Part shown: positions 1 through 48,926 of the stretch, in pieces
Numbering within the stretch: position 1 is the first letter of the stretch
How the letters are laid out: each line of letters begins with the position of its first letter
From: Actinomycetota bacterium
GTDB lineage: Bacteria; Actinomycetota; UBA4738; JACQTL01
Direction: 5' to 3'
NCBI GenBank assembly: GCA_045805265.1
Contig: JBJMLO010000008.1
Location: 128,846 to 192,845 of the forward strand
DNA: 64,000 nt
Translations under genes and position numbers: made by a program
Notes under the pieces: model-generated
Database searches by the model: none
What the model was told of the DNA's origin: nothing
The model's input: only the letters and a program-made list of their open reading frames with translations

Positions 1-731
1 GCCCTGGCCGCGGCCGTGAGCCGAAGCCAGTTCCCGCCGAGCACCAGGGACTCCTGGTCCCGAGGGAGCCCGAGGGCCCGGACCTTCGCCAGCTCGACGC
101 CCGGGTGGAGCCACGGGCCGTCGGTCCCGAACAGCAGCTTGTGGGCCCCGCCCCGGCCGACGGCCTCGACGAGGAGATCGAAGCGTCGGATCCCCGAGGA
201 GTCCGCGTGCACGTTCGGGGCCCGCGCCAGGAGGTCGATCGTCTGCCGTTGCGCGCGCCAGTCGTCGGCGAAGCTCCCGAGGTGGGGGACGATGAACTGC
301 ACTTGCTCGTATTGCTGCGCCGCGAGGTCGACGGTGGCCACCTCCCCCATCACGTCGTAGAGCACCGGAAGCTCCAGCGACCCGGCCACCTCGCAGACTT
401 CACGGGTGATCCGGGAGTCGTGGCGGTGCAGCTTGATCCCGCACGCCCCCCAGCCCGTCACCGCCTCGGTCACCATCGCCCGGATCCGGCCGGCGTCCCG
501 TTTGGCGTCCACCATGGCGTAGCCGAAGAACCGGTCGGGCCGGGCGGCCACGATGCGGCCCACCTCCCGGTTGGCCCGGCGGTAGTCGGAGTTGAATGCC
601 GCGAACAGCACCGTCCGGCCGATCCCGGCCCGGGCGGCCCGCCGGAGGTAGGCCCCGAGGGGCGCGTCCGTGTCCCAGGGCCCGGTGAGGCCGTCCCCCT
701 GGCCTGCGTGACAGTGGCTGTCGACGATCAT
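1..731 (-). CDS. amidohydrolase-2 family metal-dependent hydrolase (partial; 3' end lies beyond the window start)
   Basis: Manual translation of the minus strand from the ATG at 731..729 gives MIVDSHCHAGQGDGLTGPWDTDAPLGAYLRRAARAGIGRTVLFAAFNSDYRRANREV...GIKLHRHDS...HADSSGIRRFDLLVEAV...LLFGTDGPWLHPG with no stop before nt 1. The MIVDSHCH start and the overall pattern are typical of TIM-barrel amidohydrolases. The ATG overlaps the stop of the upstream bioF-like gene (ATGA). It is absent from the ORF track because it has no stop inside the window. Confidence 0.6.
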   Translation of the reverse strand, partial: MIVDSHCHAGQGDGLTGPWDTDAPLGAYLRRAARAGIGRTVLFAAFNSDYRRANREVGRIVAARPDRFFGYAMVDAKRDAGRIRAMVTEAVTGWGACGIKLHRHDSRITREVCEVAGSLELPVLYDVMGEVATVDLAAQQYEQVQFIVPHLGSFADDWRAQRQTIDLLARAPNVHADSSGIRRFDLLVEAVGRGGAHKLLFGTDGPWLHPGVELAKVRALGLPRDQESLVLGGNWLRLTAAAR

Positions 732-1846
732 CCCGCGACCGCCCGCCTGCGGGCCCTCGGTTGGGCCGTCCGCCCGGCCCTCGGACGGGCTCGCCCCCCC
801 GAGGCCACCACGATCCCGAGCGCCTCGACCGTCCGGTCGATCTCGGCCTCGCGGTGACCGGCGGTGACGATGAACGACACCGCCAGCCCCCGGCCGCACC
901 TCGGCCGATGCAACACCGTGCGGACCCCGAGCTCGAGGAGGCCCCGGTGGGTGGCCTGGGGGTCGAGGCCGGGCTCCGACCGGACGGACTGGAGCGGGAA
1001 CAGGCCCTCCGAGAGGGGCACGCCGAGCGCCGAGGCGCCGGCGCGGAACCGGGTCACGAGCCGTGCGAGGCGCCGCCGGAGCGCGTCCCCCACCCGGGCG
1101 TTGGCTCCGAGGGCCCGGACGGCCGCGTTGAGATGGGCGTTCGAGGCCGGGCTGCAGTGGACCCGGGTCGCGCTCCTCGACTCGTATCGTCGAACCGCCG
1201 CCCGGCTGCCGGCCACGGCGGCGACCGGAACCCCCAGCCCCTTGGCGAGGGAGGCCACGACGATCAGACCCGCGTCCCCGACGCCGGTCCAGCGCGCGAC
1301 GCCGCCGCCTCCCCGGCCGTAGGGATGCCCGGGCGCCGGAGTTCCCAAGATGCCGAGGGCCTGCGTGTCGTCCACGACCACGGTGCCGGGCTGGAAGCGG
1401 GCGACCGCCAGGTAGTCACCGACGGGAGCCACGCCGCCGCAGCCGGGACACAGGCCGTCGGTCAGCACGAACACGGATCGGGGGTCGCCGGCCTCGGCCA
1501 GTGCCCGCCGAAGCGATGCCGGGTCGTGGTGTCGGAACCTCCTGACCTTCGCCCCGGCGCACCGCGCCCGTTCCGCGCCCCACGACGCGATCGGGTAGGT
1601 CCCCTCGTCCACCAGGATCGTCCTGGCCCCCATCGCGACGAACAGGTCCCAAAACGCGTGCAGAGTGGAGGGCGCCACGGTCGCCGCCGTCGTCCCGATG
1701 AGCCCGGCCACCCGGCTCCCCACCTCACGCGCCGCGGGCGCCTCGGCCAGCGCGGCCGGCCGGCCGGTCGTGAGCTCCGCCCACGGAGGCACGCGCTCGC
1801 CACCGTGCCGCATCCCGAGGTACAGGGAGGAAGTGAGGTCGATCAC
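728..1846 (-). CDS. bioF: 8-amino-7-oxononanoate synthase-like PLP-dependent alpha-oxoamine synthase (BioF family)
   Basis: Frame of track ORF 728..3283. DLTSSLYLG matches the BioF NFSSNDYLGL motif, SLAKGLG carries the PLP lysine, LVTRFRAGA matches E. coli BioF LITRFRAGV, and the C-terminal FIVTAGHREAEIDRTVEAL matches [21 protein letters not shown]. The start is set at the GTG at 1846, which overlaps the upstream gene's stop by 16 nt. No other start codon exists in this frame up to about 1980, so the N-terminus is uncertain. Confidence 0.7.
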   Translation of the reverse strand: MIDLTSSLYLGMRHGGERVPPWAELTTGRPAALAEAPAAREVGSRVAGLIGTTAATVAPSTLHAFWDLFVAMGARTILVDEGTYPIASWGAERARCAGAKVRRFRHHDPASLRRALAEAGDPRSVFVLTDGLCPGCGGVAPVGDYLAVARFQPGTVVVDDTQALGILGTPAPGHPYGRGGGGVARWTGVGDAGLIVVASLAKGLGVPVAAVAGSRAAVRRYESRSATRVHCSPASNAHLNAAVRALGANARVGDALRRRLARLVTRFRAGASALGVPLSEGLFPLQSVRSEPGLDPQATHRGLLELGVRTVLHRPRCGRGLAVSFIVTAGHREAEIDRTVEALGIVVASGGRARPRAGRTAQPRARRRAVAG

Positions 1847-1860
1847 GGCTCGCGCCGCGA

Positions 1861-3384
1861 TCAGGTCCGCACACCCACCCGCGACCCGTCGGACGAGACC
1901 TGCTTCGGGAGCCGCTTGCGGAGCAGCACGGCCGGGATCGTGGCGTTCACCTGCCCCGTCACGGTGCTCGCGGCCAGGTCCACGCCGGTCGCGGCGCGAT
2001 AGGCATGGAGGTAACCCTGGACCTCCGGGCGCCAGTACCGGGCCCAGTTCGCCGCGCTCTCGGGGTGGATCTGGCCCGTCCAGGCCCCGTATCGGATCGA
2101 GAGAAGGATCTTCTCCCCGAAGATCGCGAGGTCCCGGAAGTGCAGGATCGACGTGTCCGTCCACGCCTGCAGGCTCTTCATGGTCTCGACCGAGTCCATC
2201 CAGGGCTCCGGGTAGTCGACCATGATCCGCCGGGGCAGGAACTCCCGCATCTCCGGGCGGGCCAGGATCCACTGCTGCATCAGGAACTCCTGCCGCGCGG
2301 TCCACGGGAGGTCGCCATACTGGTTGTGGGCGCCCTGAGTCAGCTGGAGATGGACCTCCCGTAGGCCGTTCAGCACGGGGAACCCGTCGGCGACCACCGT
2401 CGTGTCGTCGTCCTCCTTGTAGAAGATCGAGCACAGCATCAGGAGCGTGTGGAACGCCTCGAGGAACCGGGACCGCGAGTCCGCGCCCCGGATCGCGGGG
2501 ATCGCCTTTCCGATGAGCTTCAGGCCGTACTCGTGGTCGTACTCGTAGGCCCGCCGGGGGATCGTGAGCCGGTGCTCCTCGTCCTGCACCCAGCCCCACA
2601 GCAGGTTGTTCAGTCCGCGGAGCGGGTCGATCTCCAGCATCGCGAGCGGGTCGCGCTCCGCGGGGCCCCGCCGGTTCTGGAACCGCCAGCTCATGGCGTT
2701 CGTGGTCTGGACCAACATGCCTTCCTCGAGCCAGTAGTTCCAGAGCAATTCGAGCAGACACGGCCGGGTGAGCTTCGAGCGGAGGATCCCGTAGCACTGG
2801 CGGGCTCCGTACGCCCTCCGGCCGTGGATCGGGACGTCGCCGAGCTTCAGCTGGACGACGTCGTGCAGGTACGGGATCGTTCGGTGCTGGCCCACGGCCC
2901 GGAGGTACCCGAGCCACTGGGAGTCGACATCGGGGGCCGACGCCGTCGGCCGGAGCAGCCGGAGCTCCTCCTCCTCGGCGACCCCCACGTCCGAGGTCAG
3001 CACTCCGAAGTCGGCGTCCTCGAACCTCGTGTTGACCGAGATGCCGAGGTTGTCGTCGGACTCGCCGATCACCACTCCGCAGTGCGCCATCATGAAGACC
3101 TCGGTGGCGATCTTCAGCAGCCGGTACGGCTCCACATCCGGGAACGGGAGCTGGCGCTTCGCCCGGATGTGGTCGAACTGTCCCTGTGCGCGCGGCGGCG
3201 GCGAGCCACACATGATCGGCTCGATGAACGCCGCGTAGTTCTCGAAGGCCAGCGCCTCCGCGCTGTTGCGGATCACGACCCACAGCGCTTGGTCCGGCGT
3301 GGGCGTCACGTCGGCCCGGCGCATCGTCACCTCCACGGGCTGCCGCGGCCGGCCGCCCGGCGCCTTGAACATCGCCTTAGTCAT
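1861..3384 (-). CDS. hypothetical protein, 507 aa, Trp/Tyr/Phe-rich globular, no family recognised
   Basis: Track ORF 1861..3966 trimmed to the internal ATG (MTKAMFKAPGG...), which is preceded by GGAGG. Composition is protein-like throughout and local GC is lower than the surroundings. The sequence upstream of this ATG in the same frame is low-complexity G/R/A. Confidence 0.7.
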   Translation of the reverse strand: MTKAMFKAPGGRPRQPVEVTMRRADVTPTPDQALWVVIRNSAEALAFENYAAFIEPIMCGSPPPRAQGQFDHIRAKRQLPFPDVEPYRLLKIATEVFMMAHCGVVIGESDDNLGISVNTRFEDADFGVLTSDVGVAEEEELRLLRPTASAPDVDSQWLGYLRAVGQHRTIPYLHDVVQLKLGDVPIHGRRAYGARQCYGILRSKLTRPCLLELLWNYWLEEGMLVQTTNAMSWRFQNRRGPAERDPLAMLEIDPLRGLNNLLWGWVQDEEHRLTIPRRAYEYDHEYGLKLIGKAIPAIRGADSRSRFLEAFHTLLMLCSIFYKEDDDTTVVADGFPVLNGLREVHLQLTQGAHNQYGDLPWTARQEFLMQQWILARPEMREFLPRRIMVDYPEPWMDSVETMKSLQAWTDTSILHFRDLAIFGEKILLSIRYGAWTGQIHPESAANWARYWRPEVQGYLHAYRAATGVDLAASTVTGQVNATIPAVLLRKRLPKQVSSDGSRVGVRT

Positions 3385-3422
3385 GTGCCTCTCCTTCCTC
3401 CGTCCCTCGCGGGCTCCGCCCG

Positions 3423-4508
3423 CTACTTCCGGCGCAGGTGCGCTTCGACGACGTACGTCCCGGTCGGCACCGCCCGGGCGTCGATCCGGACCCGGGACCC
3501 CACGTCCTCGAGCAGGCCGCCCGCCTCGACGGTCCACTGGAGCTCGTAGCCGGCCGGGATCGGGCGCGGGAGCCTCGCCTCGGCGAGGACCAGCCCGGCG
3601 GAGTCGGGCTCGCTGACGTCGATGCGCTCTACGAACTTCTGCTCCGCCTCGCTCAGGACCTCGAGGGTCGCTTTGTGGTGCTCCTCCGCCTCCGCGAGCG
3701 CCTCCTCCGCCAGGCGCAGCTCGGCGTGCGCCCGGCGTTCCGCCTCCGGCGCCTCGACGAGCGCCCGCTCGGCTGCCTCGAACTCCTTCCTGGCCTCCTG
3801 GATCTCGGCCGGGCTGGCCCCGGGCGCCTTCGCCTGCAGCGCGTCGTGGGCGGCGGCCAGTTGCCGGTCGAGTCGCTCCTCTCTGGCGCGCAGCCCTCTG
3901 AGCTTCGCCGGATCGGGGGCCGCGGCCTTGAGCTCCGCCTCCGCGTCCCGAAGCCCCTTCTGCCACTCGGCGAGCTCCACCAGGTGCGCGTCGAGTGCCT
4001 CCTGTTGCTCACGAAGGGTTCCCGCCGAGTTCGCGAGCGCCGTCTTCTGCGCACCGGCCGGAGCAGCGGTCGCGGCGGAGTCGGTGTGCTTCGCGGACGT
4101 GGCCACCACCGTGGTGGCCCTCTTCGCGCTCGCGTTCCACTGCCTCGCCGCCTTGACGACCGATGCGAGGGCGTCTCGGGCGCGCTTGATCGAGTCGTGC
4201 GTCGCCTCGGCCTGGGCGAGCTCCCTCGTCACGGCATCGTGAGCCTCGCGGGTCTCGTCGTATTTCGCCTGGAGGGCCTTCGCATCGGCGTCGGAGAGCT
4301 CCACGCCCTCGGCCAGGACCCGGAATCGGGCCTCCGCGTTCCTCCACTGGCGCTGAGCAGCTCCGTTGAGCCCGGTCGTCGAATCGGCCCGCTTCCGCGC
4401 CGTCGCCTGTTCCTTCCTCCGTTCCTCCAGGATCGCCTCCGCCGCCTCGACCTCGTCGATGGCGAGGGCGAGCAGCTCCTCCGGCGTCCTGGTGATCGTG
4501 CCGGCCAT
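3423..4508 (-). CDS. coiled-coil protein with a small C-terminal beta-rich domain (hypothetical)
   Basis: Track ORF 3423..4508 has an ATG with a GGAGG site 7 nt upstream. A long Ala/Glu/Arg/Lys-rich heptad-like region (AEAELKAAAP..., EARKEFEAAERALVEAPEAERRAHAELRLAEEALAEAEEHHKATLEVLSEAEQKF) is followed by ...PAGYELQWTVEAGGLLEDVGSRVRIDARAVPTGTYVVEAHLRRK. Confidence 0.75.
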   Translation of the reverse strand: MAGTITRTPEELLALAIDEVEAAEAILEERRKEQATARKRADSTTGLNGAAQRQWRNAEARFRVLAEGVELSDADAKALQAKYDETREAHDAVTRELAQAEATHDSIKRARDALASVVKAARQWNASAKRATTVVATSAKHTDSAATAAPAGAQKTALANSAGTLREQQEALDAHLVELAEWQKGLRDAEAELKAAAPDPAKLRGLRAREERLDRQLAAAHDALQAKAPGASPAEIQEARKEFEAAERALVEAPEAERRAHAELRLAEEALAEAEEHHKATLEVLSEAEQKFVERIDVSEPDSAGLVLAEARLPRPIPAGYELQWTVEAGGLLEDVGSRVRIDARAVPTGTYVVEAHLRRK

Positions 4509-4525: not shown

Positions 4526-5996
4526 TCAGGGCCGGGATCCAGCTCTCCGGCCGATCCGCACCATCGGGCGGGCCCCCGCCGGCCGCCCGCCGTGGATCCC
4601 GGGCGGCGACCTCCTGACCGTCCCCCCGCCTCCGCCCGGCGGGATCGCTCTCCGCCGGACGAAGGCACGGCCGTACGGGCCGACCAGACCCGGGGCCGGC
4701 TGAGCGCCCGCCCGCGCCGCCAGCGCGGCGTTTGCCCGGAGCGTGCTCTCGAGCGCCCAGTAGGAGATCAGCCGTCCCAGCAAGCGGTCCTCGCCCTCCG
4801 GCGTGATCAGTCCCCGGGCCCTCGCCTGGCCCACCACGGCGAAGGCGAGCGCTGGGCGGGTCCGGCGGACCGCCCGGGGGTCTGCGGTCCACTGCGCGTA
4901 CAGGCGGATCAGCCGATCCGGTGTGCGGTCCGCGGTCCGGACGGCATCGCCGACGGTGCGTCCCCGGAGCGTGCCGGGACGGTGTCCCAGGACCAGTCGG
5001 ACGAACGCCGGCATGGTCGCCAGCAGGGCCTGGAGCACCCGACGGCGCTGCGCCGGCAGTCCCTCTGCCGGATAGAACGAGGTCCAGACGCTCGCCAGAC
5101 GGCGCCACTGCCGGTCGGGGTACAGGGCTTCGCCGAACGCGCATGAGACATGGACCCGAATCCACGAGAAGGGGTGGGGGTCGTCCGCCGACATCCGGAA
5201 CACGAACGCGCGCGGCAGACTCACCAATCCGATGAGGCCCATGGTCGACGAGACGCCGACCCGGGCGATGGAGAACAGGTCCGCGACGACCTCCGAGATC
5301 CATCGCTCCCACATGCGCCATGCGAGCCGCTCCGGCCCCGCCGCCGCGAGGCCGGCCCGGTGGATCTCCGGGCGGAGCGATTCGACCAGCCCGAGGAGCG
5401 CAGCCGCTTGGTGACCGGCCTCGTGGATCAGGGAGGAGGAAATCCCGTATGTAGCCGATCATGCGCTCCCGAGGGATGCGGATGATCGACACAGGGTTCT
5501 CACCTCCCCCGGGCAGGCGGGTCCGCGCACGGCGGATGGCGCCGCCCAGCCCCCGATGCAGGTAGCACACGGCCGGTGGCGCGCGGAAGTACCCCCCGGG
5601 CAGGTCGAGGGCGTCCTGGACCGCCACGTCGAGACCCGACAGCCACAGCCCGGTCTCGTGTTCGCTTCGTTGCGTGATCGCGTCGGAGAACAGATCCAGC
5701 TGCGACAACGCCAGGTTGAACCGGAGCCGGAGGAACGTGTACCGCCGCTGCTGTTCGCTCGGCCGGGCGCCGCGCCCGTGGCCCCGCAGCCACCTGAGGT
5801 ACCGGAGGATCTGGCGTCGAAGCGTCCGCCTCCCGCCGATCAGGTACAGCTCGATGGCCGTCTGGGCCTCGGGCGACAGCGCCGCGGCGGGCAGCATCGT
5901 CTCCTGGAGGGCAAACGGCTTCACCCGATCCAGCCGAGCCAGCAGCGCGCGGGCCTCGCGCTCCAGCATCCACGTGGACAGGCCGTCGGTGGACAC
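4526..5996 (-). pseudogene. putative HExxH zinc metallopeptidase (about 490 aa) interrupted by a single frameshift near 5445-5460
   Basis: Track ORF 4521..5996 is protein-like only for its first ~185 aa (MSTDGLSTWMLEREARALL...IRIPRERMIGYI). Translating the second frame upstream of track ORF 4526..5314 gives ...SATYGISSSLIHEAGHQAAALLGLVESLRPEIHRAGLAAAGPERLAWRMWERWISEVVADLF..., which contains an HEAGH motif. The two frames abut at about 5447-5459. The combined length equals one ~490-aa protein. Confidence 0.5.
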
Positions 5997-5999
5997 GCG

Positions 6000-7166
6000 T
6001 CAGGCCCCGTAGACGATGATCCGGTTGCCCTGACGGACCCACGTGCCGGACCCCTGACCCCCGCCGGACCCGTCCGCCGGCCCCCCGCCGCCCCAGGTCG
6101 ACGGGCCGCCGTACCAGCCGCCGTACCCGGGCCCGTACCAGCGCCGGCGCGCGGACGGCGCGTACCCGTAGCCCGCGCGGCGCCGGGCGTAGGGGGCGCC
6201 CCGGTAGGCGTACCTCGGCATCCGGCGTCCGTAGCCCCGCCGGTAGGGGGCGCCGACCCGACGGGAGGGGCTCCGGTAGCCGTACCGGCCGAGCATCGCC
6301 GGCCGGCGAACGCCGACTCCCATCGGACGCCGCGGCACGACCGGACCGCCCAGGGAGCGGACCATCGACCGGTAGATGCCCGGCGCGTGGGAGCGCGCCG
6401 CTGCCGCCACCGCGGCGCGGGCCACCGCCTGGGGGCTGATGCCGGGCCGCGGCCGGGCCAGCGCCGCGTTCCTCGCCGACGCGGCAGCGAGGTTGACGAA
6501 GCGCCGGGCCACCTCGAACTCGGCCGCCTCGGCCGGCATGGCCTCCAGCTCGACCTCGAACAGGCCGCCCGCCATGGATCCGAGCTTGCTGCCGAGTGCG
6601 GTGCCGATCCCCGGCGCGATCATCGACCCGAGCGCCCCGCCCACGACCGGCAGGGCCTTCTTCGCCACGCTCTTCAGCACGCCGCCAAGGGCCCGCCCGA
6701 TCGGTGACTTGATGAAGCCGCCGACCCCGCGCGAGATGCGCTTGAAGACGTTGCCGAGGAACTGCTCGAGCTCCTGTTCGTTGTTGATCTCCAGCAGCTC
6801 GGAGGCCAGCTCGACCTCCTGGGCGCCGGAGAGCGGCGACTCCAGCTCGCCGCCGAGGATCGACCCGAGGATCCCGCCGAGGAACTGCTCGGTCTCGAAC
6901 TCGCCGCCGCCCTCGAACTCGCCTCCCTCGAACTCGCCGCCTCCCTCGAACTCGCCGCCGCCCTCGAACTCTCCTCCCTCGAACTCGCCGCCGCCCTCGA
7001 ATTCGCCGCCCTCGAACTCGCCGCCGCCCTCGAACTCGCCTCCCTCGAACTCGCCGCCTCCCTCGAACTCGCCGCCCTCGAACTCTCCTCCCTCAAACTC
7101 TCCGCCCTCGAACTCGCCTCCCTCGAACTCCCCGAATTCCGTCAGCTCCGCACCCTGCATGCCCAT
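6000..7166 (-). CDS. GEFEGG-repeat protein 1: acidic N-terminal tandem repeats, Gly-zipper-like amphipathic core, Arg/Tyr/Gly-rich C-terminal tail (hypothetical)
   Basis: Track ORF 6000..7166; the start is preceded by GGAGGAGG. The N-terminus holds about 18 copies of GEFEGG(G). The core reads ELASELLEINNEQELEQFLGNVF...ALPVVGGALGSMIAPGIGTALGSKLGSMAGGLF...EFEVARRFV...IYRS. The tail reads RRPMGVGVRRPAMLGRYGYRSPSRRVGAPYRRGYGRRMPRYAYRGAPYARRRAGYGYAPSARRRWYGPGYGGWYGG...RQGNRIIVYGA. Confidence 0.75.
   Translation of the reverse strand: MGMQGAELTEFGEFEGGEFEGGEFEGGEFEGGEFEGGGEFEGGEFEGGGEFEGGEFEGGGEFEGGEFEGGGEFEGGGEFEGGEFEGGGEFETEQFLGGILGSILGGELESPLSGAQEVELASELLEINNEQELEQFLGNVFKRISRGVGGFIKSPIGRALGGVLKSVAKKALPVVGGALGSMIAPGIGTALGSKLGSMAGGLFEVELEAMPAEAAEFEVARRFVNLAAASARNAALARPRPGISPQAVARAAVAAAARSHAPGIYRSMVRSLGGPVVPRRPMGVGVRRPAMLGRYGYRSPSRRVGAPYRRGYGRRMPRYAYRGAPYARRRAGYGYAPSARRRWYGPGYGGWYGGPSTWGGGGPADGSGGGQGSGTWVRQGNRIIVYGA
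6890..7135 (-). repeat. tandem 18-21 bp coding repeat array (about 18 units) encoding the GEFEGG(G) repeats
   Basis: The plus strand reads gaactcgccgccgccctcgaactcgcctccctc... repeated head-to-tail. Its antisense frame produces the spurious SNSPP-repeat ORF 6376..7590. Confidence 0.8.
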
Positions 7167-7195: not shown

Positions 7196-7873
7196 TCAGG
7201 AGCCGTACAGCACGATCGTTCGACCTCTCCGGATCCAGCGGCCCCCACGCGGCCAGGCGCGCGTCGAGCGACCCTGGAGCCGCGGCAGGAGACCGGGCGC
7301 GTAGATCCGCGCCGAGCTGCGGGCGGCCAGCCGCGCCACCGCGGAGGGCGGCAGGTGCGCCGGCGCGGCCACCGCCCGCCGGGCCGCGGCGCTCACGAAC
7401 CGCACGAGCTGGCGGGCGATCTCGAACTCGCGGTCCTCGCCCGAGAGGCCCTCGAGCTCCAAGCCGAGCAGCGTGCCTGCCGCTGCCCCGGCCCTGGCGC
7501 CGATGTCCCCGTACCCGCCCACGCGCTCGCCGATGGCCCGGCCCACGACCGGCAAGGCCTGCTTCGCGGCGCTCTGAAGGCTGTCCTTGAGGATGGTCCC
7601 GAGCGCCCGGCCGGTGTCCGAGCGGATGAAGTTCCCCGCGGCCCGCCCGACCGCCCCGAACACGTTCCCGAGGAACTGCTCGAGCTCCTGCTCGCTCGAC
7701 ACCTCGAGGAGCTCCGAGGCCAGCTCGATCTCCTGCATCTCGCCGAGCGGGCTCTCCAGCTCGGCGGGCGACTCGAACTCGCCGACTTCGAACTCAGAGC
7801 CCTCGAACTCGCCGGGGCCCTCGAACTCTCCGACCTGCCCGTGCTCGAGTTGCGTCCGTCCGATGTCGTGCAT
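7196..7873 (-). CDS. GEFEGG-repeat protein 2 (shorter paralog of 6000..7166)
   Basis: Track ORF 7196..7942 trimmed to the internal ATG (MHDIGRTQLEHGQVGEFEGPGEFEGSEFEVGEFES...), which has GGAGG 5 nt upstream. It shares ELASELLE..SEQELEQFLGNVF, ALPVVG, EFEIARQLV, IYAPG and the C-terminal R.GRTIVLYGS with gene 1. It lies 23 nt upstream of gene 1. Confidence 0.75.
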   Translation of the reverse strand: MHDIGRTQLEHGQVGEFEGPGEFEGSEFEVGEFESPAELESPLGEMQEIELASELLEVSSEQELEQFLGNVFGAVGRAAGNFIRSDTGRALGTILKDSLQSAAKQALPVVGRAIGERVGGYGDIGARAGAAAGTLLGLELEGLSGEDREFEIARQLVRFVSAAARRAVAAPAHLPPSAVARLAARSSARIYAPGLLPRLQGRSTRAWPRGGRWIRRGRTIVLYGS

Positions 7874-7980: not shown

Positions 7981-7997
7981 TGCACGTTCCGTGCCGG
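7981..7997 (-). promoter_or_regulatory. candidate sigma-54-type -24/-12 element (CGGCACGGAACGTGCAC on the minus strand) about 110 nt upstream of the GEFEGG-repeat operon
   Basis: The GG-N10-GC spacing is conserved, with 2 mismatches to TGGCACG-N4-TTGCA. It is 14/17 identical to the element upstream of the rpoN-like gene. It is the only such match in the 275-bp gap between the rpoN-like gene and the first GEFEGG gene. Confidence 0.4.
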
Positions 7998-8146
7998 GCT
8001 GCCTCGGCGATCGACGTCGGGGGGGGACGCGAACGACGCTTCGGCTCGGGGGATCCGCGCCTCGCCAGGACGAAGCGACCTTCGCCTCATTTGGAGCGGG
8101 CCGGCGGCGCACGACGGGGACGGGGCATTTCCGGTGACGCCTGGGC

Positions 8147-9457
8147 TCAGCGATACGTGCTGGGAAGGATCCGGAGGCGGCTGCGGTACTTGGCGACCGT
8201 CCGTCTCGCGACGCGGTGACCGGCTCGGCGGAGCCGCTCGGACAGCTCCGCGTCGCTGAGGGGCCGGTCCTCCGCGGCGATGATGTCCCGAAGGCGGGCG
8301 CGCATCCCGAGCGAGCCGTCGAAGAACGCGCCGAAGGGGACAACGCGGCGCGACGGCAGGAGGACGTACTTCTCGGCAGTCGCGCGGCTCACCGTGGATG
8401 GACTGAGACCGAGTTCCCCCGCGACATCGGCGCGGGTCAGGCGCAGGTCGGTGGCCGGATCGCCGGACATCAGGTCCGGCCGCCGGTCCGCAAGGTGCTC
8501 GGTGATCCTCCGCATCGTCGACCAGCGCTCCCGGAGCCGGGCCAGCAGGAAGTCGCCCCTCCTGACCAGCTCGCACATCTTCCGGTCGCTGCGGGCGACG
8601 CCGCGGAACGCCGGGTCCACGCGGAGGGGGAGACGTCGCTCCTCGAGGACCTCGACTTGAAACGTCCCCGGCCGGTCGGCGCGGCCCAGGACCGCGACGT
8701 CCGGCTGGACCGGCGGGGCCGTCACGCCGGCTCCCGATTCGTCGTCCACGTCGGGACGCGGGAGGAGCTCCCGCCGGATGTACTCGCGGGCGTCCGCGAC
8801 GTCGGCAACGGACACGCCGAGCAGCCGCGCGATGGAGGCCGTGGCTCCCCGGGCGAGCGACTCGAGGTGATCGGCGACGACCGCGCGGGCGACGGGATGG
8901 AAGTTGCCTTCGCCGGCCAGCCGATCGATCTGCAGCAGGAGGCAGTCTCGGAGGTCCCTCGCGGCCACGCCCACGGGACCGGTCTCCCGCAGGGTCCGGA
9001 CGACGCGCTCGACGGACGCCGGGTCTGCGCCGGCGATGCGCGCCAGCTCCTGGATCCCTTCCCTGAGGTATCCCCTGTCGTCCAGGCTGGCGACGACGGC
9101 GGCGGCGATCCCGGCGTCCCGCGCCGGCAGCACGAGCATGAGCTCCCGGAGCAGCCGCTCGGCGAACGATTCCGTCGAGACGGCCGCCGGCCCGGTCGGG
9201 GGGTCGTCCGGGTCGCGGAGACTCGCCCGGGAGGGCCGGCTCGTGCAGTAGATGCAGGGTGGGTCGGCGGGGAGTCCGCAGCCGCCGCACACGTGCACCT
9301 CGTCCTCGACCAGCGCGGGGTTCTCGGAGAGCTCGCGGGCCACGGTCTGTTCCAGCTCGATCCCCGAGAGGGCCAGGAGGCTCGCGTAGGCGACGAGCGC
9401 GGGCGAGGGAGACATCCGGAGCTCCTGCGTCACGTCGAGCGCGACCGTGAGCGACAC
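8147..9457 (-). CDS. rpoN: RNA polymerase sigma-54 factor (RpoN) homolog, 436 aa, with a CxxC...CxxC insertion in region II
   Basis: Frame of track ORF 8147..10300. The C-terminus ADVAGELGLSPSTVSRATAEKYVLLPSRRVVPFGAFFDGS...PLSDAELSERLRRAGHRVARRTVAKYRSRLRILP aligns with the E. coli sigma-54 HTH and RpoN box (ARRTVAKYRE). The core-binding region ETGPVGVAARDLRDCLLLQI is near-identical to E. coli DPVGVAARDLRDCLLIQL. Region I reads VSLTVALDVTQELRMSPSPALVAYASLLALSGIELEQTVARELSENPALVE. The start is set at the GTG 14 codons upstream of the first ATG, with AGGAGG 6 nt upstream. The insertion HVCGGCGLPADPPCIYC follows region I. Confidence 0.85.
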   Translation of the reverse strand: MSLTVALDVTQELRMSPSPALVAYASLLALSGIELEQTVARELSENPALVEDEVHVCGGCGLPADPPCIYCTSRPSRASLRDPDDPPTGPAAVSTESFAERLLRELMLVLPARDAGIAAAVVASLDDRGYLREGIQELARIAGADPASVERVVRTLRETGPVGVAARDLRDCLLLQIDRLAGEGNFHPVARAVVADHLESLARGATASIARLLGVSVADVADAREYIRRELLPRPDVDDESGAGVTAPPVQPDVAVLGRADRPGTFQVEVLEERRLPLRVDPAFRGVARSDRKMCELVRRGDFLLARLRERWSTMRRITEHLADRRPDLMSGDPATDLRLTRADVAGELGLSPSTVSRATAEKYVLLPSRRVVPFGAFFDGSLGMRARLRDIIAAEDRPLSDAELSERLRRAGHRVARRTVAKYRSRLRILPSTYR

Positions 9458-9504: not shown

Positions 9505-9521
9505 TGCAAGGTCCGTGCCAA
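9505..9521 (-). promoter_or_regulatory. canonical sigma-54 -24/-12 promoter element (TGGCACG-GACC-TTGCA) directly upstream of the rpoN-like gene
   Basis: The minus strand reads ...GGGGT TGGCACG GACC TTGCA CTGACCGTGGGTTGAGGGACACACTCTCGTCGGACAGGAGGGATTCG GTG. This is a perfect match to TGGCACG-N4-TTGCW. The GC dinucleotide lies about 48 nt upstream of the GTG start, leaving a ~35-nt leader with the AGGAGG site. Confidence 0.55.
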
Positions 9522-13491: not shown

Positions 13492-14376
13492 TCAGATCCG
13501 GTCCCACTGGATCATGACGAGGCTGGGATTGTCGGACGAGACCTTCACGGGGACGTTCGCCCCGGTGACGAGCTTCGGGGCGTCGTCGGCGGGGACGACC
13601 GCCGCACTCGTCTCCTGGTAGGGCGCCTTCCCCGGGACGTTCACGGCCATCTGCACGGAGAACAGCTTGCTGGCGCCGATGGCCACACCCATGTCCTGGG
13701 CCTGCAGGATGGTCCCCGTCCCGTCGAGGCCAGTGGCGGCGAGCTGCGCCCGCAGCTGGTCGACGTTCCCCTGGCTCGCGACGTTCACGCTGGTGGTCAC
13801 CACCGCCGGCGTGACCATGACGCCGCCGGGCATCACGCCGCCCTGCATCGGCATCGCCGCTCCCGGCATGGCTCCCCCCCACTGCCCGATGCCACCGGTC
13901 ACCTGGGCGCCGCCGTCCCAGTCGATGACCACCTTGCCGGGGTCCTGCTGGTCCACCTTCACCGGCAGGGTCCGCCCCACCGACAGCGAGCCCAGCAGCA
14001 TCAGCGGGATGAACTGCTTGACCTCGATCGGGTAGGGGTTCCGGCCGGGGACGGCCACCATGAGGTTCAACCCGATCTGCGGGTTGTTGTTGAGGTACAT
14101 ACCGGTCTGGGTCATGCCGGTGATCTGGGCCGTCCCCGCCAGGCCGGTCTGGTCGATGCGGTCGGCCTCCGCGGCCTTCTTCCGCGAACCGATCCCGAAC
14201 ACCAGCAGGACGATCCCCACGATGCCGAGGATCACCCCGGTCATGGTGAGCCCGGCGATGCCCGACGACAACCCGAAGACGAAGAAGCCGGCCGACAGCA
14301 CCAATTCGAAGATCGCGGTGCCGATCAGCCAGCCACCCGTGTACTTACCGAACGTGGACGACGTGAACGTAGCCAC
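13492..14376 (-). CDS. membrane protein (two N-terminal TM helices plus a periplasmic Gly/Val/Pro-rich domain), hypothetical
   Basis: Track ORF 13492..14505 trimmed to the GTG (VATFTSSTFGKYTGGWLIGTAIFELVLSAGFFVFGLSSGIAGLTMTGVILGIVGIVLLVFGI...), which is preceded by GGAGGAGGAGG. Confidence 0.7.
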   Translation of the reverse strand: MATFTSSTFGKYTGGWLIGTAIFELVLSAGFFVFGLSSGIAGLTMTGVILGIVGIVLLVFGIGSRKKAAEADRIDQTGLAGTAQITGMTQTGMYLNNNPQIGLNLMVAVPGRNPYPIEVKQFIPLMLLGSLSVGRTLPVKVDQQDPGKVVIDWDGGAQVTGGIGQWGGAMPGAAMPMQGGVMPGGVMVTPAVVTTSVNVASQGNVDQLRAQLAATGLDGTGTILQAQDMGVAIGASKLFSVQMAVNVPGKAPYQETSAAVVPADDAPKLVTGANVPVKVSSDNPSLVMIQWDRI

Positions 14377-14452: not shown

Positions 14453-15418
14453 CTACGACGCGAGGCGACCCCGCCCGCCCTGGGCGAGCTCTCGCTCCGC
14501 GCCATGAGGCGGCGTGGGGTCCAGGAAGAAGTGCGTCACGGACGGCACGGCCTCGCGCACGTCGTGGTCGATGCGGTCGGCCATCTGCTCGACCTGGTCC
14601 GTGTTCATCCCGTCGCCGAGGTCGACCCGAGCGGCGACCATCAGCGACTCGGGCCCGAGCGCCATCGTGAGGAGCTCGATGACCCGCTCGACCCCCTCGT
14701 GGTCCTCGATGGCCCTCCGGATCTTCTCCCGGTCCTCCCCCCGGGCGGCCTCGCCCAACAGCAGGCCCTTGGTGTTCCTCCCGAGACGGAACGCGATGTA
14801 CGCCAGCAGGCAGCCGATGAGCAGCGAGGCGATCGGGTCGAACGCGTGGATGCCGGTGACCTGGGACAGGCCGACGCCCAGGAACGCGATCGCGATGCCG
14901 GCCAGCGCGCCCGAGTCCTCCAGCAGGACGGTCTTCACGGTGGGGTCCTTGCTCTCCCGGACGAACTCCCGGAACCCCATCCCCTGCTCGCGGGCCTGCG
15001 ACCGCGTCTGGCGGTACGCCCGGAGCCACGACGTGGCCTCGGCGAGGGCCGCGACCACCAGCACCGCGTAGGCCGCGAGGTAGCCGGCCGAGTCCTCCCT
15101 GCCGCCCGCGATCAGCCCGGCGATGCCCTGGAGGAACGAGAACCCCGCGCCCAGGATGAAGATCCCCATGGCCGCGATGAACGCCCAGAAGAACCGTTCC
15201 TTGCCGTAGCCGAAGGGGTGCTCCTCGTCGGCCGGACGATCCCCCATCTTCAACGAGACCAGCAGGAACACCTGGTCCGCGGTGTCGGCGAAGGAGTGCG
15301 CGCCCTCGGCGAGGATCGCGGCCGACCCCGAGATCGCGCCGGCCACGAACTTCGACAGCGCGATCAGCAGGTTGGCCCCCGCCGCCACGAGGACCGTCTT
15401 CTTGCTCTCCGAGGCCAT
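14453..15418 (-). CDS. cation diffusion facilitator (CDF) family metal efflux transporter
   Basis: Track ORF 14453..15499 trimmed to MASESKKTVLVAAGANLLIALSKFVAGAISGSAAILAEGAHSFADTADQVFLL...HPFGYGKERFFWAF.... Confidence 0.85.
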   Translation of the reverse strand: MASESKKTVLVAAGANLLIALSKFVAGAISGSAAILAEGAHSFADTADQVFLLVSLKMGDRPADEEHPFGYGKERFFWAFIAAMGIFILGAGFSFLQGIAGLIAGGREDSAGYLAAYAVLVVAALAEATSWLRAYRQTRSQAREQGMGFREFVRESKDPTVKTVLLEDSGALAGIAIAFLGVGLSQVTGIHAFDPIASLLIGCLLAYIAFRLGRNTKGLLLGEAARGEDREKIRRAIEDHEGVERVIELLTMALGPESLMVAARVDLGDGMNTDQVEQMADRIDHDVREAVPSVTHFFLDPTPPHGAERELAQGGRGRLAS

Positions 15419-15540: not shown

Positions 15541-17622
15541 CTATTCGGAGAGCGGGATCGTCCCCCGCACCCGTGTCCCCCGGCCGGGGGTGGACTCGAC
15601 GCGCAGGGTGCCCCCGACCGCCCCCAGGCGGTCGTTCATGTTGGTGAAACCCACGCCGTTCCGCCGGGCGGTCACGTCGAATCCGACGCCGTCGTCGGCG
15701 GCCTCGAACAGCAGCGCCCCGGCCTCCTCCCAGACCCGGACGACCACCGACGCGCCCTCACCCGCGTACTTCCCGGCGTTCTGCATGGCCTCCAGGCAGC
15801 AGAAGTACACGGTGGCCTCGACCTCGGCGGAGTGGCGGCCCACGTCCCCGGCTCGGATCTCCACCGGGAGCGCCGCGCGGCGCGCCGCGGAGTCCAGCGC
15901 CGGCCCGATGCCCCGGTCGGCCAGGAGCGGCGGGTAGATCCCATGGGCCAGGGCGCGCAGCTGCTGCACCGCTTCCTCGATGTCGCCGCCCAGCTCCTCG
16001 ATCAGCTCGGATGCCTTGGCGGGGTCCCGCTCGCCCAGCTGGCGGGCCAGGCGGAGCTTCACCGCGATGGCCACCAGGTGCTGCTGGGCGCCGTCGTGGA
16101 GGTTCCGCTCGATGCGCCGCCGCTCCTGGTTGGCCACGGCCACGATGCGGCCCCGGGACGCCTGGAGCTCGCCGGCCTGCCGGCGCACCTCGTCCAGCGA
16201 CGACTGCAGGGCGGAGTCCAGCCGGACGTTGTGCATGGCCAGCCCGACCTGCCGGGAGAGCTCGGCCAGGACCCGGTCCTCCTCGTCGTCGAACGGCTGC
16301 CCCTCCGGCGCGCGCTCGGCGACGAGGAGCCCGAGCAGCTCGCCGGAGTGGGTGACCGGAGCCAGTCGCAGCACGGCGTCCTCCCGCCCCTCCAGGACCC
16401 CGGGGAGCCACAGGCGGGCCCACGCGGGCCCGGACAGGCCCGCCCGGGAGACCGTGGCCTCCTCCGTCTGGCCGAGCGAGATGGGGCCGCGGGGCCCCTC
16501 CGGATCGGAGGCCGAGAGGTCCAGCCTGCCGCCGGTGGCCGTCCACATCTCCGCCGCGCGCAGCGCGAACGCCGAGCGCACCGACTCCACCATCTGCAGC
16601 AGGAGCTCGTCGAGCGGCACCGACCGCGACATCCGGGTTCCGAACGAGCGCAGGACGTCCTCCGACGTCGGCCGGCCGCCGTAGGCCAGGCGGGAGGCGA
16701 GACGGCGCAGCCGCCCCCGGGCGGGGACGTACAGCAACGCCGCCAGGCCGGCCGCGACCATCGACAGCACGAGCAGGGTCCGCTCGTCGTGGCGGGGAAC
16801 GCGCCCCAGGCCGATCACGACCGCCACGTAGATCCCGGCGACGATCGCCGAGAGCCCGGCGAGCGACACCGCGTTCGCAAACAGGGCGTCGATCGCCACG
16901 GCGACTCCCGGCGCGGCCTCCAGCAGCAGGGCGACCGGGACGGCGACCGTCCAGCCGACGGCCCACAGCCCGGCCGACGGCGGCCAGTCGACCAGCGCCC
17001 ACAGGATCCCCACGGCCACCGCGCCCCAGGCCGCCGCGAGGACTCCCAGCGCGAGCCACTTCATGTGCCGCTGCTCGTTCGGCGTGACCCGGCCGAACCG
17101 GTCGGCGAATCCCGGCGCGCCCACGAGCAGGGCCACGACGAGCTCGCCGGCGACGAGCGGCGTGTTCACCCGGCCTCCCGCCATCGCCACGGCGGCGGCC
17201 AGGGCGCCCACGTAGACGAGGCCGGCGACCACCCGCCGGGTCGACGTCCCGAGGCGTCCGTCCGGCATGCCCAGCAGCAGATGGGCGCCGACCGCGGGCA
17301 GCAAGCCGGCCGCGGCCGGGCCCAGGTCCCCGTTCAGCAGCCCGATGCCCGCCACCGCCGCTCCCCCACCGAGGACGGCGCCCAGGGGCTCGCCCCGGAA
17401 CCGGAACGTGCGGACCGCCCCGGCCGCCGCCCACACCACCGCGGTGGCGGCGAGCAGGATCAGTCCGTGTCCCGCCCCCCGCACGACCTGGGCGACCAGC
17501 GCGGCGCCGGACAGGCCGATCCCGGCCACCGCGAGCACGGCGCCGAGGGCGAGGGCTCCCGTCCTTCGATCGCGCCCGACGTCCACATGGGGTGCCGTTC
17601 CCGCCTTCACCGTGGTGGCCAT
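15541..17622 (-). CDS. sensor histidine kinase, NarL/HisKA_3 type, with a multi-pass N-terminal membrane domain
   Basis: Track ORF 15541..17628. ERRRIERNLHDGAQQHLVAIAVKLRLA is the HisKA_3 H-box. The C-terminal HATPase (GVGFTNMNDRLGAVGGTLRVESTPGRGTRVRGTIPL) follows. The N-terminal 300 aa are hydrophobic. No response-regulator gene is adjacent. Confidence 0.85.
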   Translation of the reverse strand: MATTVKAGTAPHVDVGRDRRTGALALGAVLAVAGIGLSGAALVAQVVRGAGHGLILLAATAVVWAAAGAVRTFRFRGEPLGAVLGGGAAVAGIGLLNGDLGPAAAGLLPAVGAHLLLGMPDGRLGTSTRRVVAGLVYVGALAAAVAMAGGRVNTPLVAGELVVALLVGAPGFADRFGRVTPNEQRHMKWLALGVLAAAWGAVAVGILWALVDWPPSAGLWAVGWTVAVPVALLLEAAPGVAVAIDALFANAVSLAGLSAIVAGIYVAVVIGLGRVPRHDERTLLVLSMVAAGLAALLYVPARGRLRRLASRLAYGGRPTSEDVLRSFGTRMSRSVPLDELLLQMVESVRSAFALRAAEMWTATGGRLDLSASDPEGPRGPISLGQTEEATVSRAGLSGPAWARLWLPGVLEGREDAVLRLAPVTHSGELLGLLVAERAPEGQPFDDEEDRVLAELSRQVGLAMHNVRLDSALQSSLDEVRRQAGELQASRGRIVAVANQERRRIERNLHDGAQQHLVAIAVKLRLARQLGERDPAKASELIEELGGDIEEAVQQLRALAHGIYPPLLADRGIGPALDSAARRAALPVEIRAGDVGRHSAEVEATVYFCCLEAMQNAGKYAGEGASVVVRVWEEAGALLFEAADDGVGFDVTARRNGVGFTNMNDRLGAVGGTLRVESTPGRGTRVRGTIPLSE

Positions 17623-20095: not shown

Positions 20096-20097
20096 CG

Positions 20098-35535: not shown

Positions 35536-35611
35536 GGTCCCATCGTCTAGTGGCCTAGGACACCACCCTCTCAAGGTGGAGACACGGGTTCAAATCCCGT
35601 TGGGACTACCA
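35536..35611 (+). tRNA. tRNA-Glu (anticodon CUC)
   Basis: GGTCCCATCGTCTAGTGGCCTAGGACACCACCCTCTCAAGGTGGAGACACGGGTTCAAATCCCGTTGGGACTACCA folds as a cloverleaf. The acceptor has a G1:U72 wobble, the anticodon stem is CCACC/GGTGG, the loop is CTCTCAA (U33, A37), the T-arm is ACGGG-TTCAAAT-CCCGT, and CCA is encoded. It closely resembles E. coli tRNA-Glu. Coordinates are +/-1. Confidence 0.85.
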
Positions 35612-35626
35612 GAGAGAACATGCGGG

Positions 35627-35860
35627 TCAGGCCGGGTTTCCTGCTCCCCGCGCTCGCGATCTCATGTCGTTGATCCCGTCCTCGTCCCGACCCGGTCCCG
35701 TGGACGACACGGGACGGAGCCTCTTCGACTCCTTGGTGCTGCGCCTCCGCATGGTTCCGAGCTTCTGCCCGATCTCGCGGTCGAGGCCCTCGAAGAGACT
35801 GACGTAGTGCTGCTCAACCATGCGTGTCGACGTGTGGCCGAGTCGGGCGCCCCAAAGCCG
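35627..35860 (-). pseudogene. C-terminal remnant (~75 codons) of a tyrosine integrase adjacent to tRNA-Glu
   Basis: The minus-strand frame of track ORF 35627..35821, extended upstream to an in-frame stop, reads RLWGARLGHTSTRMVEQHYVSLFEGLDREIGQKLGT.... This matches the conserved integrase C-terminus (LGH-S/T...Y-H). No N-terminal or catalytic core is present. Confidence 0.45.
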
Positions 35861-36107
35861 CTACAAGCCATCGTCGCTGCGATAGCTGCCGGGACCGTCT
35901 CCCTGCGCTGGCTCGCTCAGATGCCCGGTACTCCTCGGGACGGTGCCGCGTGGCCGCATACCGCGCCATGGCCGCCTGAGCGCGAGACCCGCAGCCGCGT
36001 CCCTTGGTCGTGCTGCGCGGGTTCGGCGACCTCCGTCGGTGCGGGCCTTGACTTGCTGAGACGAGTTGCCGCAGTGTTCGTACACCATCGAGGGAGGAGG
36101 GGGAATC

Positions 36108-36845
36108 ATGCGTTCTCGCATCAAGATCGCCAGTGTTGCAGCCGTGGCCGTCCTCGTCGCAGCCGCCATGTTTCACGAGTCACGGAGAGCGGATGCCACA
36201 CAGAATCAGCCAGTCGTGGCGGGGCAAATTAACACCGAGCTGGGGGCAACCTCGATTTGCTGGATGGCGGGCGGTGCTACGTGCACCATCGACAACACGG
36301 GATTCTTTGTGCGGACTGACCTGGCGAACGTGGGTGTGATGGGCAGGACAGATACCTTGAACGGCATCGGTGTCGACGGCGAGTCCGGCAAGACCGGGGC
36401 AACGGGGGTCTATGGGAATGGCACCTACGCCGTACACGGTAAGAGTTTCGACGGCTGGGGCGTATGGGGGGAAGGCCTTGACCGGGGCGTGTACGGGATC
36501 AGCGACAACGAGGGCGTCGTCGGGTTCGGCAACAACGTCGGGATCCGAGCCGAGAGCCCGAACATAGCCCTGCGCGTGAAGGGCAAGGCCGAGTTCAGCC
36601 GCAGTGGAAAGGTGACCATCTCCTACCCGAACAAGCAGGCCACAGTGACCGGCGTCCCGGTCACGGCCAAGAGCCTGGCCTTCGCCACGCTGCAGCAGTT
36701 CCTGGCCGGACGGTACGTGCTGGCGGCCGTCCCCAACCTCGGCGGATCCAGCAACTCGTTCACCATCTACTTGAACAAGGCCCCCGGGTCGAGTTCTGCC
36801 CCCAAGAGCGTGGTTGTGGGCTGGCACGTCATCGAAAGGCCCTAG
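36108..36845 (+). CDS. secreted Gly-rich repeat protein (hypothetical)
   Basis: Track ORF 36066..36845 trimmed to the ATG, which is preceded by GGAGGAGGGGG. Signal peptide is MRSRIKIASVAAVAVLVAAAMFHESRRADA. The body repeats G.GV.G motifs. Local GC is visibly lower than the flanks. Confidence 0.7.
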   Translation: MRSRIKIASVAAVAVLVAAAMFHESRRADATQNQPVVAGQINTELGATSICWMAGGATCTIDNTGFFVRTDLANVGVMGRTDTLNGIGVDGESGKTGATGVYGNGTYAVHGKSFDGWGVWGEGLDRGVYGISDNEGVVGFGNNVGIRAESPNIALRVKGKAEFSRSGKVTISYPNKQATVTGVPVTAKSLAFATLQQFLAGRYVLAAVPNLGGSSNSFTIYLNKAPGSSSAPKSVVVGWHVIERP

Positions 36846-37065
36846 CCCTGGGGTGGTCTTGAAGTCTCGGTTCGCAAACCGCCTGCTCACGGCCCGCCCG
36901 TCCAAATCGTCTTGGGCGACTCCGGCGTGCGGACGATCGGCAGGGGGGCCCTAAGCAAGGAGGCTCGCGGGCCTACCTGGCGTGCGGCGAGTGTAACCGG
37001 ACCGGAGTAGCGCGGACGAGGAGTGTGGTCGGTGGGCCGCGATCGTGCTTACACCGCGCGCAGTC

Positions 37066-37347: not shown

Positions 37348-37389
37348 GAGAGTCTCGACCGCCGGACGTAGCTGAAGAGCTGTTCGCGT

Positions 37390-48925: not shown

Positions 48926-48926
48926 G

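Follow-up and report, generated by a model that had tools for sequence, protein, structure and literature searches.

A sigma-54 factor at one end of a probable self-contained cassette with its own activator and promoters in an actinobacterial metagenomic contig

The window analyzed here is a 64,000-nucleotide (64-kb) stretch of contig JBJMLO010000008.1 (positions 128,846 to 192,845, forward strand) of the Actinomycetota bacterium assembly GCA_045805265.1, and it contains, near its left end, an rpoN gene that encodes a true sigma-54 factor. The gene is followed by seven genes, c1 to c7, most of which belong to orphan families, and a convergent gene for a bacterial enhancer-binding protein (bEBP) ends just past the window's left edge. 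In our reading, to which we give a probability of roughly 0.75, the rpoN product is a conventional activator-dependent sigma-54 that forms one end of a self-contained cassette of ~9.5 kb with its own bEBP and promoters. The rpoN gene and the parts of its product are as follows.

8147 to 9457, minus strand: rpoN, encoding the 436-aa sigma-54 (stop codon included in the coordinates)
9311 to 9433, minus strand: region I (activator-interacting domain), residues 9 to 49, PF00309
9245 to 9289, minus strand: Cys4 module C57-x2-C60-x7-C68-x2-C71, in place of acidic region II, from the clade alignment
8183 to 8209, minus strand: RpoN box ARRTVAKYR, residues 417 to 425, exact in the translation

The open reading frame (ORF), read from a GTG start codon at 9457 with GGAGGG ~6 nt upstream, has the boundaries and the length of 436 aa given in the original prediction. 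All three sigma-54 domains pass their Pfam thresholds: Sigma54_AID (PF00309), with 29.8 bits against a gathering score of 23.8 over residues 9 to 49; Sigma54_CBD (PF04963), with an E value of 1.7e-32 over residues 93 to 282 and profile positions 7 to 183 of 185; and Sigma54_DBD (PF04552), which covers the helix-turn-helix (HTH) and the RpoN box, with an E value of 8.9e-22 over residues 303 to 436. The core-binding domain contains GPVGVAARDLRDCLLLQ, and the region I pattern L-x-M-x-P-x-L...ELEQ...NPAL is kept across the clade in alignments of 10 and 42 sequences. In the 42-sequence alignment, R418, R419, T420, V421, K423, and R425 of the RpoN box are invariant. The AlphaFold2 model of the product, built with 42 homologs, has a mean pLDDT of 85.7, and a Foldseek search of the PDB with this model returned sigma-54/SigN holoenzyme chains as all of the top 29 matches (best E value, 7e-22; TM, 0.64). 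The three domains, the exact RpoN box, and the fold match of the model identify the product as a true sigma-54, and the recognition of region I, the core-binding segment, the HTH, and the RpoN box by eye in the original prediction thus stands, its C-terminal similarity included.

Downstream of rpoN, the cassette comprises seven codirectional genes (c1 to c7), toward which a bEBP gene, encoding Sigma54_activat and AAA_lid_14 domains, runs convergently from the far end. The same order is found in the window, L005, L006, L007, L010, L014, L015, L016, L018, and L022, with sigma-54 identities of 38% to 68%. All seven cassette genes were located by tblastn on the minus strand of the window, from 7873 down to 1. 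The cargo of the ~9.5-kb cassette comprises five orphan families, a BioF-like pyridoxal phosphate (PLP)-dependent enzyme, and an amidohydrolase, to which a VanY or M20 peptidase is added in some variants. The flanks upstream of rpoN differ among genomes (L005, L006, and L007), as expected for an inserted module. The inner clade of sigma-54 proteins, with 59 to 68% identity, comprises ~56 clusters, and it is present in at least 4 of 185,579 GTDB species representatives, three of which are labeled Streptosporangiaceae and one uncultured Actinomycetes; this count is a lower bound obtained by scanning two peptide patterns from the clade alignment, whereas no relative was confirmed when one protein served as the query. 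More distant cassette-linked sigma factors, at 38 to 47% identity, are carried by L014, L015, L016, and L022, and the neighbors in L015 are labeled Actinomycetota. L013 (GCA_041477045.1; 5150 to 5370 and the locus as a whole) carries the bEBP, both palindromes described below, a TGGTAC-N5-TTGCG promoter, and an additional M20 peptidase without an adjacent rpoN, which implies that sigma-54 is encoded elsewhere in that genome.

No bEBP is encoded within the 64-kb window, as had been noted originally: tblastn with an orthologous bEBP gave a best E value of 0.29, and GAFTGA was absent from all six frames. The absence is due to the window's edge. The Logan contig L025, which is 100% identical to positions 1 to 3394 of the window, extends 859 nt further, through the end of c7 and into a bEBP gene that runs convergently on the strand opposite to c7. 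It covers the C-terminal 271 aa of this bEBP, with the stop codon 42 nt outside the window on the left. The fragment matches PF00158 (9.9e-21) and AAA_lid_14 (3.8e-12) and shows 70% identity with the L007 bEBP. The orthologous bEBPs of L007, L013, and L014, the three read at full length, match PF00158 at ~1e-54, have intact Walker A and B motifs (GESGTGKE and FLDE) and GAFTGA, and carry a C-terminal Fis-type HTH_8 (3e-4 to 6e-3). The N-terminal ~120 aa of these orthologs have no Pfam match and look like a degenerate receiver. Wherever an orthologous locus extends sufficiently beyond the amidohydrolase gene, a convergent bEBP is present, L015 being the one exception. The 3' ends of c7 and the bEBP gene overlap by ~146 nt just left of window position 1 (L025 positions 3436 to 3581), and the same is seen in L005 and L006.

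The candidate control elements of the cassette lie upstream of rpoN and between rpoN and c1.

9505 to 9520, minus strand: P_rpoN, -24/-12 promoter TGGCACGGACCTTGCA, its GG 62 nt upstream of the rpoN start
7981 to 7996, minus strand: P_c1, -24/-12 promoter CGGCACGGAACGTGCA, with 122 nt from its GG to the start codon of c1 downstream
8071 to 8084, minus strand: UAS1, distal palindrome CGAAGGTCGCTTCG, a candidate bEBP site by its conservation
8030 to 8043, minus strand: UAS2, proximal palindrome CGAAGCGTCGTTCG, likewise a candidate bEBP site by conservation, one arm imperfect

P_rpoN is the sole perfect match to TGGCAC-N5-TTGCW in the 64 kb, with 0.02 expected by chance, and a -24/-12 element lies 43 to 92 nt upstream of rpoN in 9/9 rpoN-carrying loci. 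The P_c1 element is kept in 10/10 cassettes; in the window it is off consensus at two positions (CGGCAC...GTGCA), and the degenerate pattern YGGCAC-N5-KTGCR matches only P_rpoN and P_c1 in the whole window. Judging from their sequences, both promoters would be used by this sigma-54. Upstream of P_c1, all 10 loci have at least one 14-bp CGAAG-N4-CTTCG palindrome, and 7 of the 10 have a pair, the members of which are ~42 bp apart, lie between rpoN and P_c1, and start ~100 and 58 nt upstream of the -24 GG. The palindromes of the window start 89 and 47 nt upstream of the GG, 11 nt nearer than in the other loci (L005 to L014), and since this shift is about one helical turn, their phase relative to the promoter is kept. 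The pair has the classical layout of bEBP sites, and the palindromes are probably sites of the activator. A role for them as terminators of rpoN was considered and rejected, since they have no T-run and their phase is fixed relative to P_c1.

In the rpoN product, HVCGGCGLPADPPCIYC carries Cys57, Cys60, Cys68, and Cys71 (CGGC-x7-CIYC) directly after the NPAL end of region I, so that two CxxC pairs, C57-GG-C60 and C68-IY-C71, are separated by a seven-residue spacer. All four Cys are invariant in the 10-sequence clade alignment. Among close homologs, counted as those of the best 120 matches in which region I could be located (118), CxxC-x(3-20)-CxxC is present in 110, Cys is lacking altogether in 5, and the remaining 3 show a partial or irregular motif. 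In a wider set of ~132 full-length family representatives, obtained by an exhaustive search and clustered at 50% identity, the strict motif is present in 85, a variant spacing with at least four Cys in 16, no Cys in 23, and a partial set in 9. The carriers include the annotated RpoN of a cultured member of the Chloroflexota, Kallotenue papyrolyticum (WP_052343919.1), at whose locus no cassette was found, and proteins from metagenome-assembled genomes (MAGs) of Roseiflexaceae, Herpetosiphonaceae, and Ardenticatenaceae. The cluster, which had been taken for a peculiarity of the window protein, is thus common in the family and is the hallmark of a large sigma-54 subfamily, found in about three quarters of the nearest representatives. 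Most likely, it was inherited from this subfamily, which is common to Chloroflexota, and takes the place of the acidic region II. The mostly all-or-none presence of the four Cys among homologs is as expected of a metal site, and the module is most likely a structural zinc knuckle, to judge from the pattern of its residues; the AlphaFold2 model has a pLDDT of ~81 over residues 51 to 70, with isolated beta-bridges at 49 to 51, 56, and 63. A search of the literature for zinc or cysteines in region II of sigma-54 turned up no relevant paper.

The cargo genes follow rpoN in the order c1 to c7.

7196 to 7873, minus strand: c1, a 225-aa orphan with an MHDIGRTQLE start, acidic EFEG repeats, and a basic tail ending in IVLYGS
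6000 to 7166, minus strand: c2, 388 aa, paralogous to c1, in which a long (GGEFE)n tract and a glycine-zipper segment are combined with a tail rich in R, G, and Y
4526 to 5996, minus strand: c3, a putative metallopeptidase with HExxH (LIHEAGHQ), split by a 4-nt insertion
3423 to 4508, minus strand: c4, a 361-aa coiled-coil protein, the least conserved gene (27 to 31% identity)
1861 to 3384, minus strand: c5, a 507-aa orphan under very strong conservation (70 to 78% identity)
728 to 1846, minus strand: c6, similar to BioF/Kbl-type PLP-dependent acyltransferases (62 to 65% identity to orthologs)
1 to 731, minus strand: c7, an Amidohydro_2 protein (PF04909, 1.3e-15), its 3' end cut by the window edge

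No real Pfam or NCBIfam match was found for c1 to c5, and PADLOC returned coiled-coil noise for c4 only. Sequence and profile searches of the PDB with c1, c3, and c5 gave nothing below an E value of 0.04, c1 having no match in Pfam, NCBIfam, PDB, or PADLOC and c2 none in Pfam, NCBIfam, or PADLOC. The c1 orthologs, with 62 to 67% identity, lie directly after rpoN in L005 to L007. The c1 and c2 proteins have a common plan, with an MHDI-RTQLE start that is almost invariant across distant cassettes, EFEG/GGEFE repeats, and a basic tail ending in (I/V)xYG(A/S). Their core is Gly-rich and amphipathic or of the glycine-zipper kind, and it resembles frog antimicrobial peptides. The HExxH of c3 is kept in 9/9 cassettes compared. 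The c5 family has long invariant stretches, such as KEDDDTTVVADGFPVLNALREVHLLLTQGAHNQYGDLPW, and 4987 database matches at an E value of ≤0.001, almost only from metagenomes, with no Pfam domain or name among the best 120 of the 4987; its AlphaFold2 model, from 31 sequences, has a mean pLDDT of 42.6. The c6 ortholog in L007 matches Aminotran_1_2 (9e-10) and TIGR00858 bioF (8e-18), the latter far below the equivalog cutoff. As a plausible guess from these sequences, the c3 metallopeptidase may process the c1 and c2 proteins, alongside small-molecule or envelope-related chemistry.

The insertion in c3 is ATAC at ~5448 to 5451, ten codons before HExxH, where GGC TAC GGG is changed to GGC TAC ATAC GGG, and the tblastn matches to c3 accordingly fall into two pieces, 5981 to 5451 and 5449 to 4667, in different frames. 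TTAC is inserted at the same site in L006 (~14616 to 14650), L010 (~13845 to 13880), and L023 (1757 to 1785). The four carriers do not form a single branch in rough neighbor-joining trees of c3 or c5, and the frame downstream of the insertion is open and conserved in all of them. A same-site insertion in divergent genomes with the downstream frame kept speaks for tolerated or programmed recoding rather than decay. The insertion duplicates the TAC codon, and the next zero-frame codon is then ATA (in the window) or TTA, which are the two rarest sense codons among the 18,070 codons of the window genes. Ahead of HExxH, the new frame has no start codon. Decay appears to fit less well than either programmed +1 frameshifting or hopping of the peptidyl-tRNA(Tyr) over 4 nt, and the insertion is a candidate site for such an event.

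The window carries, together with rpoN, the genes gltX, FAH (its N-terminal domain Rv2993c-like), ilvE (class IV aminotransferase), and serA, from which the original prediction had suggested an actinobacterial genome, and all of these neighbors are present. The pairing of gltX with an Rv2993c-like FAH is also the arrangement of Mycobacterium tuberculosis. All 11 named GltX relatives among the best 120 (62 to 77% identity) are labeled "Actinomycetota bacterium," and the GC content is ~72% throughout. Rfam found one tRNA only in the window and no actinobacterium-specific RNA. The actinobacterial context is thus upheld by the GltX relatives and, in addition, by relatives of the sigma factor in MAGs labeled Streptosporangiaceae. 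Actinobacteria (Actinomycetota) have been stated to lack the sigma-54 system (PMC3162934, 2011; PMC12316311, 2025), as the original prediction had noted, and the latter study attributes the absence to high genomic GC content, proposing that sigma-54 promoters are thereby made unusable. A true sigma-54 in an actinobacterial context contradicts these published generalizations.

On the basis of these features, the following course of events is proposed. Basal transcription would first supply a little sigma-54, and an NtrC-type bEBP (an AAA+ protein with GAFTGA, a Fis-type HTH, and a degenerate receiver-like N terminus) would be made from its own gene. The bEBP would bind the two CGAAG-N4-CTTCG palindromes, which are centered at about -118 and -76 in most loci, and, on some signal, its ATP hydrolysis would open the closed complexes of the sigma-54 holoenzyme at P_c1 and thereby turn on c1 to c7. 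It would probably open P_rpoN as well, so that synthesis of the sigma factor would be reinforced by positive feedback. What has been observed directly, by computation, is which domains are present, how the product is predicted to fold, how the genes are ordered, and that the promoters and palindromes are conserved; from these observations we infer DNA binding by the bEBP, autoactivation, a priming promoter, and a regulon restricted to the cassette. With its own sigma factor, activator, and promoters, such a cassette can work in Actinomycetota, which are otherwise without a sigma-54 system. More tentatively, and with a little less than even confidence, we propose that a portable, self-priming sigma-54 unit brought the orphan operon into Actinomycetota, with a private orthogonal sigma factor under positive feedback, a previously undescribed zinc-knuckle region II, and c3 recoded by a +1 frameshift or 4-nt hop at the rare TTA/ATA.

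Several points weigh against the activator-dependent, self-contained cassette. L025 ends at Walker B, before the GAFTGA part of this organism's own bEBP, and at the divergent L015 the convergent gene, of 453 aa, has no recorded Pfam hit and no tblastn match. No CGAAG-N4-CTTCG palindrome was found upstream of P_rpoN, so its activation would need looping from the sites ~1.45 kb downstream or another input. The frameshift that c3 carries in this genome could be a sign of decay. The evidence consists of MAG and metagenome sequence throughout, the phylum assignment rests on MAG labels and one marker protein, and the apparent dedication of the sigma factor to one operon is drawn from the window and the cassette loci; further bEBPs, a second rpoN, or additional sigma-54 promoters may exist elsewhere in the genome. 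Finally, the product scores 202.7 bits with the rpoN equivalog of NCBIfam, TIGR02395, below the cutoff of 277.35. This cutoff is an annotation threshold and not a structural feature, and the match is full length (residues 13 to 436 against profile positions 3 to 433 of 434; E value, 1.1e-59), which indicates, at the level of sequence, a divergent sigma-54 subfamily. The identical database protein is labeled "hypothetical" at NCBI, probably because of this score, and relatives are labeled "RNA polymerase sigma-54 factor" at JGI; annotation-based surveys would therefore miss the clade.

Four other explanations were weighed, two of which concern the sigma factor itself. The original prediction had raised an activator-independent or alternatively regulated lineage, which would form open complexes without a bEBP. 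The 64-kb window without a bEBP, the exchange of acidic region II for the Cys4 module, and the many clade members that fall under the Pfam AID threshold in precomputed annotations speak for it. This idea did not hold up and is extremely unlikely, since a bEBP gene of this very organism lies 42 nt past the window edge, orthologous loci carry a bEBP with GAFTGA at the cassette end across sigma-54 identities of 38 to 68%, region I of the window protein is intact and passes the Pfam threshold, and P_c1 is preceded by palindromes with the phasing typical of activator sites. The Cys4 module could instead have a regulatory role, gating sigma-54 activity in response to redox state or metal, like the zinc-thiolate switch of ZAS anti-sigma factors. 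The four invariant Cys sit at the junction of regions I and II, and in solved holoenzymes (PDB 5NWT, 9MSG-type) the segments of these regions occupy the path of DNA and RNA; this position, together with the largely all-or-none presence of the four residues, would suit a sensor. We nonetheless consider a sensor unlikely, as the module is found in many sigma-54 proteins without a cassette link, such as that of Kallotenue, which suggests a general structural role, and as ~20% of the subfamily have lost all four Cys with all else kept.

The other two concern the genome. A decaying, nonfunctional horizontal acquisition, in which the cassette would be a pseudo-operon in this genome, would account for the split of c3 just ahead of HExxH, the two off-consensus positions of P_c1, and the imperfect arm of UAS2, but the ORFs of rpoN, c1, c2, c4, c5, and c6 are intact and retain conserved functional residues, P_rpoN matches the consensus perfectly, and three other divergent genomes have the 4-nt insertion at this site, each with an open and conserved downstream frame; decay is thus distinctly unlikely. 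A contig that is not actinobacterial, being misbinned or from a phylum in which rpoN is routine, such as Chloroflexota, is very unlikely. The nearest sigma-54 relatives outside the cassette clade do come from Chloroflexota, at ~40% identity, the sources are all MAGs or metagenomes with no cultured relative found, and the NCBI label is at the phylum level only. Against this stand the shared contiguous window with gltX, the Rv2993c-like FAH, ilvE, and serA; the uniform Actinomycetota labels of the named GltX relatives; relatives of the sigma factor on contigs of 26.6 to 287 kb labeled Streptosporangiaceae or Actinomycetes by separate projects; the even GC content of ~72%; and the presence of a LAL-type regulator typical of actinomycetes. 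The conventional activator-dependent sigma-54 of a self-contained cassette is accordingly retained as the preferred reading.

Elsewhere in the window, a GAF-HisKA_3 histidine kinase (15541 to 17586) adjoins four tandem paralogs of ~760 to 820 aa (17645 to 27415, minus strand), with FtsX in the three that were scanned and MacB-type permease domains in two. The region from 35536 to 41300 includes a tRNA-Glu (CTC) followed by the lowest-GC stretch of the window (0.64 to 0.70), and it holds the LAL-type regulator (1005 aa; AAA_16 and GerE) and several ORFs without a family match; it is possibly an island, and no integrase was seen there. At 46485 to 50000 (minus strand), one gene encodes a fusion of CheR methyltransferase and two PAS domains, and one or two CheB-methylesterase-like genes follow it, with no chemotaxis receptor or CheA near them. 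A 92-nt tRNA-Gly reported by ARAGORN at 58955 to 59046 (minus strand) is probably a false positive; it overlaps the start of the class IV aminotransferase gene and is absent from the Rfam results.

A sigma-54, activator, and promoter system that is kept across dozens of actinobacterium-labeled metagenomic lineages of 72% GC offers a direct test of the argument from GC content. It also illustrates how, in nature, a sigma-54 may act privately for one cassette, and such a unit could serve actinomycetes as an orthogonal expression module with tight off/on control. In addition, the findings draw attention to a Cys4 form of region II that is widespread and apparently undescribed and to an operon, abundant in metagenomes, with five uncharacterized protein families. 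What is new is the packaging, that is, a self-contained, apparently autoactivating cassette of sigma-54, bEBP, and promoters with an orphan operon, in a phylum otherwise without this system.

Compared with canonical sigma-54 (E. coli, K. pneumoniae, and Aquifex aeolicus; PDB 5NWT, 7QV9, 8F1K, 9MSG, and 5UI5), the window protein is alike in region I, the core-binding domain, the extra-long helix and HTH, and the RpoN box, as well as, by prediction, in the recognition of GG-N10-GC promoters and partnership with an AAA+ activator, whose orthologs have GAFTGA, and its model superposes with a TM of ~0.64. It differs in being only 25 to 29% identical and shorter (436 aa), in having the Cys4 module and a Pro/Gly/Arg-rich linker for acidic region II, and in a host phylum reported to be without the system; and whereas the canonical protein is a global factor with many activators, the window sigma-54 appears to be tied to one operon. 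The Cys4 sigma-54 proteins of Chloroflexota (Kallotenue and the Roseiflexaceae, Herpetosiphonaceae, and Ardenticatenaceae MAGs) have the same CxxC-x(5-10)-CxxC after region I and are 38 to 41% identical to the window protein over the full length, but they are routinely annotated as RpoN, have no cassette link (Kallotenue), and are presumably general purpose.

The closest documented precedent is the nifU2-rpoN superoperon of Rhodobacter capsulatus, in which a sigma-54 is embedded in the gene set that it controls with the same positive-feedback logic. According to that account (PMC6925177, citing Cullen et al. 1994), the superoperon is autoactivated from a promoter that depends on sigma-54 and an activator, a weak basal promoter primes the loop, and RpoN (NifR4) serves NifA and AnfA only. 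Its cargo is nitrogen fixation in a phylum where sigma-54 is routine, in contrast to the five orphan families and two enzymes of the cassette; in the cassette, rpoN is immediately preceded by the promoter, the portable unit includes the activator gene as well, and a priming promoter comparable to the weak basal promoter of R. capsulatus is presumed. PspF/psp and HrpR/S are alike in having one bEBP without a canonical phosphorylatable receiver, one sigma-54 operon, and nearby upstream sites, but they use the general sigma-54 of the host, whereas the window module encodes its own, which is apparently autoregulated. Extracytoplasmic function (ECF) sigma modules of the sigma-70 family likewise place an autoregulated sigma gene beside its target operon in a transferable orthogonal unit; they differ in belonging to an unrelated family with another mechanism, in being held by anti-sigma factors, and in needing no ATP-dependent activator.

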